A stretch of DNA of 59,828 nt from an uncultured bacterium (GCA_964458995.1 CAYWKW010000002.1:1-59828), one strand, 5' to 3'; counted from the first letter of the stretch, positions 30,112 through 34,048 are shown. Notes: generated by a model from the sequence alone, not told the origin. Made by a program: numbers and translations.

Positions 30112-31464
30112 CTATTTGGTGGCTTTGCTTGAAGAGATTTCGGGCTTAGCCTCTTTCATGTGCCCTAAATACTGGGGCAGCTCCAGTCCCGCCATGGCCG
30201 TTACATCGTGCAGCGAGGGCAACGACTTCACAAACTGGCTGATGAAGTTCGAAGTCGAGCTCCCCTTTGTGGGGTCGCCCTGATTTCCGCTATCCCAGAC
30301 GGTGATCTTGTCGATCTTGATGTTCTTAATCGCCTCAGTCTGCAGTTTCACGATCTCTTCCAACTTTTCAATCAAAAGCATCGTGGAGGCGCTCTTCGCA
30401 TCATCCCCGCAAGCCTCAACCAACTTCTGATAACCCTTCGCCTTGGCATCCAATAGTTTTTGAATCCCTTCCGCCTCAGCCTGCTTGATCGCCAATATCG
30501 CCTCAGCTTCGCCGCGCGCCTTCAACACCTTGCTTTGCGCCTCGGCCGCCGCCTCGATCTCGATCCTTTTCTTCATGATCTCTTGCGGAACGACCTGCTC
30601 AGCCTCCAGCAATTGCGTTTGCGCCAGCGCCCTCGCTCTTTGGATCTCCGTCTCTGCCTGCTGCTTGGCCACCTGGCTCCTTTGGCTGGCCTGCGCCTCT
30701 TTTTCTGCGAGTACCGCATTTGTCAGGGCAATGTGGGCCTTCGAATCGTTTTCGCCCTTCACCGCCTCGGCATGGAAAGAAGCTACCGAAATCCTCCGGT
30801 CCCTCTCCGCGTGCGCCTTTCCGATATCGCCCTGCTTCTCCTGCTCAGCCACATCGACCTTCGCCTGATTCACCGCCGTGGCAGAAGCCTTCTTGCCAAT
30901 GCTCTCAATATACTCAGACTCGTCAGTGATATCGGTGATGTTCACGTTCAGAAGCGTCAGACCAATCTTGTGCAATTCGGGCTCGATATTCTTTTTAATC
31001 GACTCCAAAAATCTTTCCCGGTCCTGATTGATCTCCTCGATCCGCAAGCCTGCAACGGTCAAGCGCAACTGGCCGATGATGATCTCCGTTGCCATCGACT
31101 CGATGCCCCGGTGATCGAGATCGAGCACCCTCACCGCCGCATTGTTCATGATCTCAGGCGTCAAGCCGACAGCCACCGTAAACGTGCTCGGCACATTGAC
31201 ACGGATATTTTGATGCGACAGCGCGCCCTTTAAAGGAATGTGAATGGTTCTTGGCGTCAAGTCCAAAAAGGCGCATCCCTGTATCAGAGGCCACACGATC
31301 GTGCCGCCGCCATGATAACACTGCACCGTTCGATTGCCGCCCACTCTTCCATACACCACCAGGATCTTATTCGATGGGCACCGTCTGTAGAGTTTCGCTA
31401 AAAAATAGAGCGCTGAAAAGACGAGAAAAATGATGACATAAGTCGTTAAAAAGGGGATTTCCAT
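30112..31464 (-). CDS. Flotillin-like SPFH/band-7 protein
   Basis: N-terminal TM anchor, SPFH core, then a long Ala/Glu/Gln-rich coiled region ('AEKEAQASQRSQVAKQQAETEIQRARALAQ'), as in YqiK/FloT. Confidence 0.85.
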   Translation of the reverse strand: MEIPFLTTYVIIFLVFSALYFLAKLYRRCPSNKILVVYGRVGGNRTVQCYHGGGTIVWPLIQGCAFLDLTPRTIHIPLKGALSHQNIRVNVPSTFTVAVGLTPEIMNNAAVRVLDLDHRGIESMATEIIIGQLRLTVAGLRIEEINQDRERFLESIKKNIEPELHKIGLTLLNVNITDITDESEYIESIGKKASATAVNQAKVDVAEQEKQGDIGKAHAERDRRISVASFHAEAVKGENDSKAHIALTNAVLAEKEAQASQRSQVAKQQAETEIQRARALAQTQLLEAEQVVPQEIMKKRIEIEAAAEAQSKVLKARGEAEAILAIKQAEAEGIQKLLDAKAKGYQKLVEACGDDAKSASTMLLIEKLEEIVKLQTEAIKNIKIDKITVWDSGNQGDPTKGSSTSNFISQFVKSLPSLHDVTAMAGLELPQYLGHMKEAKPEISSSKATK

Positions 31465-31517
31465 ATTAGCCTCGCTAGAGAAGGGACGATTTTCTCACAA
31501 CTCCCCATTCTTTTCAA

Positions 31518-32168
31518 TTAAAGGAAATCTTCACACCTGGCGTAGGCGCATCTAATCCCAAGAGCGGGTCTTCTTTGGGGAAAATCGACTCTTAATATCT
31601 CTCTTTTTATGTTAAATTCAGGAAACCAAACGCTGGCCTCTTCAATGGCAGCATTCGCAAGCGCAAAGTTTTCTTTTGATATTTCTCCATCATAAATGAA
31701 ATAGAAACTAATTTGCTTGGAAACTTCATTTGCATCGAGTACTACTCCCCTAAGTTGGGGAGTTACTTTGCCTAGCAAAGCATCAATCAATGCCAAAAGA
31801 ACTGCAGCTCCTAAAACGGTCCGGCTATCCTTATATAAAAATGCACTTTTTTGATTATAAGTCGTTGGTGTGGGTTCTTTTCTCAGATAGACCAATCTTC
31901 CCTGAATGGGGATTTTTGCTGGGTAGTCTATTCGTACCATAATGTCATCGTTGCTCTCATAGGTTTCGCTGATGTTCATTTCTACAGTAGAGAAACCAAC
32001 TAGTTCAAATAATTCGTCTGTGATTTCTCCATCATAAAAAAAATGGATGGTGCATAGGTTTTTTTTCTTATTTAAATCAACAGTAACAGCTCGTAAAGAT
32101 GGGGCAACATGACCGAGCAATCCCCCATGAACTTCTAGGAGAATATCTACTAAACTGTCTTCCATCAT
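31518..32168 (-). CDS. Protein built from two tandem ~100-aa repeats; candidate immunity protein to the upstream toxin-like gene
   Basis: Both halves share 'LLG.V.P.LR.V..D.N....I.F.F.YDGEI..E.F.L...RvD.P...P..G...Y.R.E'. The start codon overlaps the upstream stop (ATGA). The gene is AT-rich. Confidence 0.5.
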   Translation of the reverse strand: MMEDSLVDILLEVHGGLLGHVAPSLRAVTVDLNKKKNLCTIHFFYDGEITDELFELVGFSTVEMNISETYESNDDIMVRIDYPAKIPIQGRLVYLRKEPTPTTYNQKSAFLYKDSRTVLGAAVLLALIDALLGKVTPQLRGVVLDANEVSKQISFYFIYDGEISKENFALANAAIEEASVWFPEFNIKREILRVDFPQRRPALGIRCAYARCEDFL

Positions 32169-34048
32169 TCCCCTATTGGTTTATATGGAACAACGTGAAC
32201 TCCATTCTTAGAATAATGAATTTTCCCCCACGTCGTTGGAATTTTGAGTTCTGTAGTTTTATCAATCGTATAACCTATAAATTCTTTGAAGTTTACGATT
32301 TCCTGATAACCTGGCATGCCAGGAATATGCGTATTGGATCTCTTACCTTTGATCCCCGTCCCAGCAAATTTGTTAATTAGTTCTTGAGTTTTTTCTAGGG
32401 GATATTCCCAAGTGCTTTTGGAAAGGAGATAATTCCTATGCCAAGTCAGATGCTTACCTTGATCATCCAAAAGAAGCTTGAGATTGCTATTTTTAATAAC
32501 TAATTCTCGGTGAGATAGGCATTTGCCTGCTTCTTCAACAATTTTGTGTCTTGTTTGTGGAGATGCTAACGCTTCGAGAGTCATTGCCTGGTTGGTCATC
32601 TTGAGGTCAATGAATGCTTTGGTAGCTTTGGCTGAGTATTTGCAGGCTAGGATATCAACACTATACCTCCCGACAGCTTGGCCGATAAGGCTGCCTCTTT
32701 GGTAGTCATCCAATTGATCGAAATTTTGGATGAGTTCTTTAAGTTCAGGAACCATATCCTGAAGAAGTTGGAAAGAGGTGGTCTTTTTTATGTATTTAAT
32801 GCATTGCCAAGCCGCATCTGCAAACGCATTGGAGGAATCAATGGGATGCGTTCCGAGTGCCCAAAGGCCTTTTCCAATCCCTCTTAGGGTGCTTAATGTT
32901 TCTGGGAAGAAATCAATGAGAGAATGAGCTCCACCTTCAGTGAGGCCAGCTATAATGCCAGCACCAAATTTTGCTGAAGTTTTCCAATTAGCCTGCTTCG
33001 GATGCAAGCCAGATTCAAGGTAATCTTCAATCGCCTTATCAAATTCTCCGAGTTCAAAATAGGCAGCTGCCCGTTGAAAATAGGCCTCTTTGAGCATCGG
33101 GTTCTTCTGGATGGAAGAGGTAAGGGCCAAAATGGCATCCGCGTAGAGACAGTATTCAGATTGGACCTGACCTTTCAGGAGATAGAGTTTGGATATGAGT
33201 TGATTCCCGTAATTGTTCTTTTCTGCTAGATGGATCAAGAAATTGATTTGGTTGAAGGCCTCTTCAAAATCGCCGATGATTAGACTTTCAAGGGCCGTTT
33301 TAAATTTCAGCCCCTCTTCCTGATGGTTTTCCAGACAAAAGACAAATATCTCCTTATACTGTTCGTCAATTTCTTGAATGGTTTTGTCGATCAAACTTTT
33401 TGAATCTTCATACTTACTTTCTAAACCTCCTTCATCGATCTGTTGAATGGATTTCTGAATCAGTTTGATTTCGAATTCAATGTCGTCCATGTCATAGGGG
33501 CACCCACCTCCAAAGGCAGTTCGGGACCCAAATTCAATTTTCCCATCATCTATGGAGAAACAGCGATAGCCTTTGTCGTACCCTTTTTGAAGCCTTTTCG
33601 AAAATTTTAAGTAGGAGTTCTTCATTTGGTCGGGAGAAATCAGATAGTAAAATTCTAGGTCTCTATAGAGCTGATTGGCAACTTCTTTAAAATCAGCTGG
33701 AGACCGGTATGAAATGGCTTTGTGGTTATGTTCTCTCCATTCTCCATTGGAGCTTTCCCAGTTGTAAATACGGCACTCATAATCTCGAACTGACCAAGGA
33801 GTGACAAAATGGGGTTGCTGATTCTCGTCTAGTAGTGAAGTATCTTTTTTGAAAACTTGATGAACTGTCGATGTTAAAAGGTCGTAAATACTTTCCATAT
33901 TCGGGTCGTTTTCATCACCACAACCCCACTTGCATTGAACTGTTAAACCGCCGTAACTGATCTCACTTCCTTCCCATTCACTCGCATTGACACAGAGAGA
34001 AGAAGACAACAAAAAGAAACAAGACAGCAATCTGAACATAGCGCCCAC
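32165..34048 (-). CDS. Secreted TPR-containing protein with a Gly-rich pre-toxin-like segment and a C-terminal polymorphic-toxin-like module
   Basis: Signal peptide 'MFRLLSCFFLLSSSLCVNA'. TPR-like 'AYFQRAAAYFELGEFDKAIEDY'. Gly-rich 'AKFGAGIIAGLTEGGAHSL..LRGIGKGLWALGTH'. The last ~110 aa, '..DDQGKHLTWH..GKIHYSKNGVHVVPYKP', resemble C-terminal RNase-type toxin tips. Confidence 0.5.
   Translation of the reverse strand: MGAMFRLLSCFFLLSSSLCVNASEWEGSEISYGGLTVQCKWGCGDENDPNMESIYDLLTSTVHQVFKKDTSLLDENQQPHFVTPWSVRDYECRIYNWESSNGEWREHNHKAISYRSPADFKEVANQLYRDLEFYYLISPDQMKNSYLKFSKRLQKGYDKGYRCFSIDDGKIEFGSRTAFGGGCPYDMDDIEFEIKLIQKSIQQIDEGGLESKYEDSKSLIDKTIQEIDEQYKEIFVFCLENHQEEGLKFKTALESLIIGDFEEAFNQINFLIHLAEKNNYGNQLISKLYLLKGQVQSEYCLYADAILALTSSIQKNPMLKEAYFQRAAAYFELGEFDKAIEDYLESGLHPKQANWKTSAKFGAGIIAGLTEGGAHSLIDFFPETLSTLRGIGKGLWALGTHPIDSSNAFADAAWQCIKYIKKTTSFQLLQDMVPELKELIQNFDQLDDYQRGSLIGQAVGRYSVDILACKYSAKATKAFIDLKMTNQAMTLEALASPQTRHKIVEEAGKCLSHRELVIKNSNLKLLLDDQGKHLTWHRNYLLSKSTWEYPLEKTQELINKFAGTGIKGKRSNTHIPGMPGYQEIVNFKEFIGYTIDKTTELKIPTTWGKIHYSKNGVHVVPYKPIGE

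Follow-up and report, generated by a model that had tools for sequence, protein, structure and literature searches.

The window analysed here, that is, the whole 59,828-nt stretch of DNA from an uncultured bacterium (GCA_964458995.1, CAYWKW010000002.1:1-59828), carries a putative toxin gene and a putative immunity gene lying end to end on the minus strand. As the list of open reading frames (ORFs) shows, three minus-strand ORFs are present at 30112-34048, encoding the toxin, the immunity protein and a flotillin. The SufB protein encoded next door has 84-91% identity to Chlamydiae/Chlamydiales proteins from metagenome-assembled genomes (MAGs), and on sequence grounds the bearer of the locus is an uncultured Chlamydiota bacterium from soil. 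The first two genes, in our view, very probably form a two-gene polymorphic toxin-immunity module of a soil Chlamydiota bacterium, with a predicted RNA-cutting C-terminal tip and a double MafI2 protein that would neutralise it. The features of the pair were as follows, with the immunity units scored by hidden Markov models (HMMs):

32165-34039, minus strand: toxin gene, 624 aa from the likely ATG, stop codon included (ORF list)
32168-32506, minus strand: Ntox50 (PF15542) ribonuclease (RNase) toxin domain, aa 512-624 (Pfam, phmmer and Foldseek)
32450-32452, 32216-32218 and 32195-32197, minus strand: catalytic-equivalent histidines H530, H608 and H615, respectively (mapped via PMC9970974)
31518-32168, minus strand: immunity gene, 216 aa, acidic product (pI 5.0) with no signal peptide, start overlapping the toxin stop in ATGA (ORF list)
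31845-32168, minus strand: MafI2 unit A, aa 1-108 (unit HMM E = 2.4e-36; A/B typing scores 149/69; net charge -7)
31521-31844, minus strand: MafI2 unit B, aa 109-216 (unit HMM E = 4.8e-36; A/B typing scores 67/134; net charge -1)

Residues are numbered throughout on the 624-aa toxin beginning at ATG 34039. The initial annotation had described a protein of 627 aa, which is what the ORF at 32165-34048 yields when begun at GTG 34048; the ORF was borne out, but the 624-aa product is the likelier one, because ATG 34039 is preceded by GAGGTGG (the protein then starts MFRLL) and was the start chosen by the gene caller on an independent 3.7-kb assembly (Logan contig) of the same sequence. The 38 homologues of the toxin were mostly 600-650 aa long. 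The overlap of the two genes and their AT-richness, both reported by that annotation, were confirmed: the toxin stop and the immunity start share ATGA (GGGAATGATGGA), and the GC contents of the toxin and immunity genes are 0.412 and 0.390, respectively, against 0.485 for the window.

The tip matched Ntox50 in Pfam over the full length of the profile (positions 5-92 of 92), with E = 1.5e-21 and 77.4 bits against a cut-off of 22.2. A phmmer search of the Protein Data Bank (PDB) returned 8hhj_B, the MafB2 toxin, with E = 1.3e-6, and the YxiD toxin was also matched by sequence. The AlphaFold2 (AF2) model of the tip had a predicted local distance difference test (pLDDT) score above 90, and its best Foldseek match was 9v8i_B, the YxiD-CTD, with E = 3.2e-4, a template modelling (TM) score of 0.75, a root-mean-square deviation (rmsd) of 2.2 Å and 34% identity. 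In its defining description, Ntox50 is predicted to be an RNase of the BECR fold; its conserved residues are H, S, K, T, H, K and HxVP, its hosts include chlamydiae, and no immunity family is named (PMC3482391). Two experimentally proven RNase toxins are related to the tip by sequence and by predicted fold. Neisseria MafB2-CT (PDB 8HHJ) is an RNase whose toxicity requires H335, H402 and H409, and MafI2 inhibits it 1:1 with a Kd of about 40 nM (PMC9970974). Bacillus subtilis YxiD-CTD (PDB 9V8I) is a metal-dependent tRNase toxin that is inhibited 1:1 by its immunity protein through steric occlusion of the substrate site (PMC12700104).

Residue equivalents were taken from the residue numbers in the contact table of PMC9970974. 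MafB2 H335, H402 and H409 correspond to H530, H608 and H615 of the window toxin, and MafB2 K334, K346 and K405 to K529, K541 and K611; all six are kept. The catalytic histidine and contact lysine equivalents were nearly invariant in the family alignment, and by this alignment K529 and K541 would be substrate- or immunity-contact lysines. The Ntox50 signature was present as GKH530, SK541ST, IH608, K611 and GVH615-V-V-P618, the last being the C-terminal HxVP motif. As judged by sequence and by the predicted model, the tip is an Ntox50 domain of the BECR/RNase A-like ribonuclease family, which upholds the earlier suggestion of an RNase-type C-terminal tip. By analogy with the two characterised toxins, it probably cleaves RNA, and tRNAs are the probable substrate.

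The 216-aa partner had been read as a cognate immunity protein made of two homologous repeats of about 100 aa, and this reading stood. Its halves were homologous to each other with 34% identity over 91 aa (E = 5e-16), and reciprocal tblastn of the two gave E of about 1e-12. Scans with Pfam and NCBIfam found nothing in this protein, because the scanned Pfam set did not contain PF26541, and a single-sequence phmmer search against the PDB was likewise empty. PF26541, named MafI2 in the gene tables, was listed in precomputed Pfam assignments for the window protein and for all 36 proteins returned (the window's own included). When a profile of 28 immunity homologues was used, the sole PDB match was 8hhj_A, the MafB2 immunity protein, with E = 0.042, and it aligned to unit B; the separate unit A and unit B HMMs each aligned to the Neisseria meningitidis protein, NmMafI2. 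The AF2 model of the immunity protein had a pLDDT of 94.5 and a predicted TM score of 0.91, and it showed two alpha-beta-beta-alpha-beta-beta units. Foldseek returned a single match at E <= 0.001, again 8hhj_A, with a TM score of 0.76 and an rmsd of 2.4 Å over 98 columns.

Contact positions pointed the same way. In the Neisseria complex, the backbone carbonyls of MafI2 residues 15-18 hold toxin K346, and MafI2 Glu63 bridges K334 and K346 (PMC9970974). The LLG motif of the window protein (LLG in unit A, LLGKV in unit B) falls on MafI2 residues 15-18, and both Glu63 of unit A, which is nearly invariant, and Glu177 of unit B align with NmMafI2 Glu63. The tip is basic (pI 9.5, charge +7) and the whole immunity protein is acidic (charge -8), in line with the complementary charges reported for 8HHJ. 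Of the two units, A is the more acidic and keeps the Glu63 equivalent more strictly. MafI2 is a single domain of about 100 aa, whereas the window protein is, by sequence and by predicted structure, a fusion of two differentiated MafI2-family immunity units, A and B. We infer RNase activity of the tip, its neutralisation by this protein and the stoichiometry of the two.

A scan of species-representative genomes gave 60 loci with the scaffold, i.e., the part of the toxin that precedes the tip, and all of them were scanned with three HMMs, one each for scaffold, tip and MafI2 unit. Almost all of these loci came from MAGs labelled Chlamydiota (Rhabdochlamydia, Parachlamydiaceae or Waddliaceae) or Verrucomicrobia; we take the Verrucomicrobia-labelled MAGs to be mislabelled, and the scaffold appears to be Chlamydiota-specific on this sequence survey. 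The scaffold was joined to Ntox50 in 52 loci, 49 of which had at least 350 bp of downstream sequence. The partner gene is the rule among Ntox50-tipped homologues: a MafI2 unit lay within 250 bp downstream in 46 of these 49 loci, against none of the seven loci that had an alternative tip and enough downstream sequence (Fisher p = 5e-7).

The alternative tips were of at least four types. Four of these were 82-135 aa long, and Pfam gave no significant family for any of the four. They were located as follows:

L007:7567-7896: alternative tip, first type
L009:7576-7821: alternative tip, second type, shared with protein P0026
Tails of the toxins of L048, L049, L054 and L062: alternative tip, third type
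L055:6691-7032: alternative tip, fourth type

In addition, protein P0034 had a weak DUF4258 tip. All tips started at scaffold HMM position ~505-512. Where the downstream sequence was examined (L007, L009, L049 and L062), each alternative tip was accompanied by a small neighbouring ORF of 85-243 aa, which makes them candidate new toxin/immunity pairs. Orphan Ntox50 3' fragments were interleaved with further MafI2 genes in 12 loci, and at least three MafI2 units were found in 11 loci. In L001, the main and the orphan tip were 72% identical and their immunity modules 75% identical, a case of paired diversification. Given the fixed tip junction, the alternative tips, the paired MafI2 genes and the orphan cassettes of the relatives, the scaffold family is, as far as sequence tells, a true polymorphic toxin family.

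The toxin pair was found in a different genomic context in each relative examined, which fits a mobile, AT-rich cassette. Some copies were clearly decaying. The P0025 toxin was truncated right after the first catalytic histidine (545 aa), and beside it P0074, the immunity protein, was reduced to one unit and a frameshifted start of the second (129 aa); together they look like a decaying copy of the module. Several loci had split scaffolds. Such copies, and a GC content low enough to suggest a mobile island, would be expected if the window pair were an inactive relic or an intracellular addiction module of the toxin-antitoxin kind instead of an exported weapon. This we consider very improbable, since both window ORFs are intact with all catalytic and contact residues conserved, and a signal peptide followed by a conserved mature scaffold of about 490 residues is unexpected for a cytoplasmic toxin of a toxin-antitoxin system.

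The relatives also bear on how the double immunity protein arose. In the clade closest to the window (L001-L005, L013, L017, L020 and L070), the immunity gene was always fused and consisted of a differentiated A + B pair, indicating that the A/B duplication predates this clade and is maintained. In several loci the A + B pair was duplicated as a whole module. Between such paralogous modules, the identities of units A and B were 62% and 92% in L001, 57% and 67% in L013, and 85% and 65% in L020, respectively, and across loci the correlation with the toxin tip was similar for the two units (r = 0.50 and 0.54); these comparisons singled out neither unit as the specificity determinant. Single MafI2 units were present in many loci from MAGs labelled Parachlamydiaceae or Waddliaceae. 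In Rhabdochlamydia-type loci, a single ORF encoded a MafI2 unit, then a 44-aa remnant of a toxin C-terminus (...WGVIHTTKDESHIIPAKP), then a second MafI2 unit. Such ORFs occurred at L010:7224-7991 and L010:8070-8837 and also in L016, L039, L015, L028 and L050, and as proteins P0069 and P0072; the Ntox50 remnant of about 44 aa that serves as the linker retains both histidine positions. At the sequence level, a toxin remnant kept between two MafI2 units suggests read-through fusion across orphan toxin remnants as the origin of two-unit immunity genes. The fused two-unit protein and its remnant-linker relatives thereby illustrate immunity-gene evolution within cassette arrays.

Ahead of the tip, the toxin was divided into the following parts:

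33983-34039, minus strand: Sec signal peptide, aa 1-19 (MFRLLSCFFLLSSSLCVNA, predicted cleavage before SE; read from the sequence)
33515-33970, minus strand: N-terminal alpha/beta domain, aa ~24-175, with nearly invariant Cys36 and Cys40 (SYGGxxxxC..GCGD) (AF2, alignment)
33005-33481, minus strand: helical and tetratricopeptide repeat (TPR) region, aa ~187-345, with an invariant CLENHQ motif and about three TPR motifs (Pfam, Foldseek, alignment)
32840-32977, minus strand: conserved Gly-rich segment, aa ~355-400, GAGIIAGLTEGG = GxxxGxxxG (alignment)
32507-32839, minus strand: conserved helical pre-toxin region, aa ~401-511, ending at the tip junction (alignment, scaffold HMM end points)

Residues 1-19 form a typical Sec/signal peptidase I signal with no lipobox. 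They are the sole strongly hydrophobic stretch of the toxin, and the equivalent N-termini of the homologues finish in ...FA in the alignment. The AF2 model of the whole toxin had a mean pLDDT of 80. Within it, the alpha/beta domain was modelled mostly at 83-96, with no Pfam match and no PDB fold match among the top Foldseek results. The TPR region matched Pfam TPR_1 (E = 7.8e-7), and Foldseek found three-TPR proteins at TM scores of 0.7-0.85; the TPR motifs aside, no part of the scaffold corresponded to a Pfam family or to any of the leading PDB fold hits. The Sec signal and the TPR-like helices proposed by the initial annotation were therefore recovered. Its Cys-rich N-domain was overstated, as the 605 mature residues include 10 Cys, of which just two, both N-terminal, are nearly invariant. 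The Gly-rich segment that it named is real and conserved, with G361, G365, G369 and G387 nearly invariant in the family alignment, although the AF2 confidence there is low (49-75). The likeness of this segment to the PT-TG pre-toxin domain was rejected: Pfam gave no match to PT-TG at E <= 1, nor one to any other pre-toxin domain, and the segment is instead a family-specific GxxxGxxxG motif. Its hydropathy, at most 0.99 over 19 residues, is too low for a transmembrane helix. This glycine-zipper segment is possibly a membrane-interacting or translocation element, which is speculation on our part.

A second TPR protein was observed in L001. It has 657 aa, is encoded divergently at L001:5891-7864 (minus strand) directly upstream of the toxin gene, and matches the scaffold HMM at positions 290-488 only; a PIN/PhdYeFM toxin-antitoxin pair lies nearby.

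On the proposed mechanism, the toxin would be exported through Sec to the periplasm and may then travel further. The mature scaffold of about 490 residues would present or deliver the Ntox50 tip, and the tip would act on RNA through H530, H608 and H615, so that translation stops in the recipient cell. The immunity gene would be translationally coupled to the toxin gene through the ATGA overlap, and its acidic product would stay in the cytoplasm. There, by analogy with NmMafI2, the double MafI2 protein may bind the basic RNA-binding face of the toxin and block substrate access, shielding the producer and its kin.

In our judgement the toxin is aimed mainly at competitors within the same host cell, chlamydiae or other bacteria, rather than at the host. 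The toxin might instead be a host-directed effector, leaving through Sec and a chlamydial type II pathway or outer-membrane vesicles for the inclusion or the host cytosol, where its cleavage of eukaryotic tRNA or rRNA would subvert or kill the host; the immunity protein would then only guard the producer against toxin molecules folding prior to export. In favour of this reading, the phylum is an obligately intracellular one, the toxin carries a Sec signal with no contact-dependent delivery system encoded in its vicinity, and effectors of intracellular bacteria often contain TPR repeats (PMC3482391). The scaffold is conserved over its full length, with 36-51% identity across chlamydial families, and YxiD-CTD cleaves tRNAs of distant species (PMC12700104), so the substrate range may be broad. 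We nevertheless regard a host effector as unlikely. Toxins aimed only at eukaryotes typically have no immunity genes, as has been argued (PMC3482391), whereas in the family described here immunity genes are near-universal (46/49 loci), and orphan arrays and tip swapping are pervasive. The relatives have accumulated orphan tips and additional immunity genes, and their tips are swapped along with their own partners; arrays of this kind are typically found at bacterial polymorphic toxin loci, and these loci have been linked to conflict among related bacteria. Bacterial rivals are therefore favoured as the target.

Several observations weigh against a toxin-immunity module used on such rivals. No trafficking domain was detected by Pfam in the toxin or in the neighbour genes examined when type V (T5SS/CdiA), type VI (T6SS/PAAR-Rhs) and type VII (T7SS/LXG) secretion system domains and MafB-N were considered, and no known delivery machinery (T5SS, T6SS, T7SS or MafA) was linked to the toxin gene. 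From the periplasm, the toxin would still need a way into the cytoplasm of a second bacterium. The conservation of the scaffold across families and its TPR region would also fit a host-directed effector. The profile similarity of the immunity protein to NmMafI2 (E = 0.042) is weak when taken alone. Within the window, the locus itself was the only match when tblastn was run with the toxin, the immunity protein and each unit, so extra or orphan copies are absent there. In the search for expression evidence, the window locus was matched only by DNA reads, all from one soil-metagenome study. Finally, three Ntox50-tipped loci (L027, L029 and L035) had no MafI2 and another downstream partner of 220-225 aa, so MafI2 is not obligatory. 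These partners, at L027:7227-7889, L029:7260-7937 and L035:6175-6852, are mutually homologous ORFs and possibly represent a second, unrelated immunity family for Ntox50.

Among known systems, MafB2-CT/MafI2 of N. meningitidis (MGI-2; PDB 8HHJ; PMC9970974) is one of the closest to the window module. Both have an Ntox50 tip with the three catalytic histidines and the contact lysines, an immunity protein of PF26541 with the same predicted fold (in NmMafI2, three helices on a four-stranded sheet), an immunity gene directly downstream, a toxin with a Sec signal peptide, and orphan cassettes (in the relatives of the window locus). The window toxin differs in that it contains no MafB N-terminal DUF1020 by Pfam; no mafA is present, and the ORF upstream at 34130-34420 has no family match. 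Its scaffold is Chlamydiota-specific, its immunity protein is a two-unit fusion of 216 instead of 108 aa, and the identity of the immunity domain to NmMafI2 is about 18%. YxiD-CTD/YxxD of B. subtilis 6633 (PDB 9V8I; PMC12700104) shares Ntox50 and is the best structural match to the tip, but YxiD is a Gram-positive polymorphic toxin with another N-terminal region, and YxxD was absent from the sequence and fold matches of the window immunity protein. The polymorphic toxins classed as type II secretion system (T2SS) or signal-peptide only by Zhang et al. (2012, PMC3482391) have the same layout of signal peptide, conserved N-terminal scaffold, swappable tip and adjacent cognate immunity gene, and they share orphan cassettes with the relatives of the window locus. 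That study concluded that immunity proteins are almost missing from intracellular bacteria such as Waddlia, and hence that these do not compete with conspecifics, whereas immunity genes are the rule across the Chlamydiota loci studied here, and the window scaffold is not described there.

In the literature that could be searched, we found no description of the scaffold family, of a link between MafI2 and chlamydial Ntox50, of a fused double immunity protein or of the alternative tips. The pair had been proposed as an undescribed one, which holds in part: the Ntox50 and MafI2 families are already described, and Ntox50 in chlamydiae was noted in 2012, but the scaffold, the fused double immunity protein and the spread of the system in an intracellular phylum are new. 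Since the Ntox50 RNase and the MafI2 inhibitor are both known, the biochemical prediction is firm and easily tested. The locus and its approximately 50 relatives revise the 2012 inference (PMC3482391) that intracellular bacteria largely lack immunity genes, indicating that these obligately intracellular bacteria carry toxin/antidote cassettes in the style of bacterial warfare. They provide a molecular entry point for studying chlamydial competition or superinfection exclusion in amoebae and other hosts, and they point to an uncharacterised delivery scaffold and several tip domains with no family assignment.

A wider conjecture, which we hold tentatively and think somewhat more apt to fail than to hold, is that Chlamydiota as a phylum possess polymorphic toxins in which a Sec-exported scaffold (Cys-containing alpha/beta domain, TPR and glycine zipper) brings swappable RNase or other tips into rivals sharing the host cell or inclusion, with no need for type V, VI or VII secretion. 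Double MafI2 proteins born by read-through would then broaden or strengthen immunity. If true, obligate intracellular bacteria would wage kin-discriminating warfare inside eukaryotic cells by a delivery mechanism not yet described.

The third minus-strand ORF follows the immunity gene:

30112-31464, minus strand: flotillin (SPFH/Band_7 and Flot), 450 aa (Pfam and NCBIfam matches)

The flotillin gene starts 53 nt past the immunity stop on the same strand, as the initial annotation stated; its membership in one array with the pair did not hold up, because flotillin was absent from all other loci. If the three genes were one functional array, flotillin might organise microdomains for toxin export or protect the membrane, and the shared strand, the short gap and the absence of a terminator-like site between the genes would agree with this. 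We give this idea almost no credence. No flotillin was found within about 6 kb in any of the approximately 60 related loci or at the locus of the closest homologue, where, as in the other relatives, the toxin pair stands in a different genomic context. The GC content of the flotillin gene is host-like, 0.535 against 0.39-0.41 for the pair. The 53-nt gap contains a weak promoter-like site (TTGAAA-17-GAAAAT with TG). In the promoter and terminator scan of 29.9-34.8 kb, the counts were not above those of shuffled sequence, so no clear operon boundary could be drawn. Flotillin was accordingly rejected as part of the toxin system, and being adjacent only in the window and host-like in GC content, it is best regarded as an unrelated neighbour.

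The surroundings of the window locus are housekeeping genes, namely a split LigD, SufBCDS and shikimate genes. Two mutually exclusive small ORFs, 34130-34420 (minus strand, 96 aa) and 34136-34381 (plus strand, 81 aa), fall in the interval that separates the toxin gene from sufB, and neither gave a family match; the 81-aa ORF is the one called on the Logan contig, and the 96-aa ORF is the minus-strand alternative. On the other side, 27618-28274 (plus strand) encodes a 218-aa protein without a Pfam match whose N-terminal half is long and proline-rich (PPPPPPRQLSPPLP...PPLPPGRG); this protein could be a eukaryote-interacting effector. At 28307-30090 (plus strand), adjoining the flotillin gene, LigD is split into two overlapping genes for an ATP-dependent ligase and a Prim-Pol domain, and this is a non-homologous end joining repair system on a chlamydial contig.

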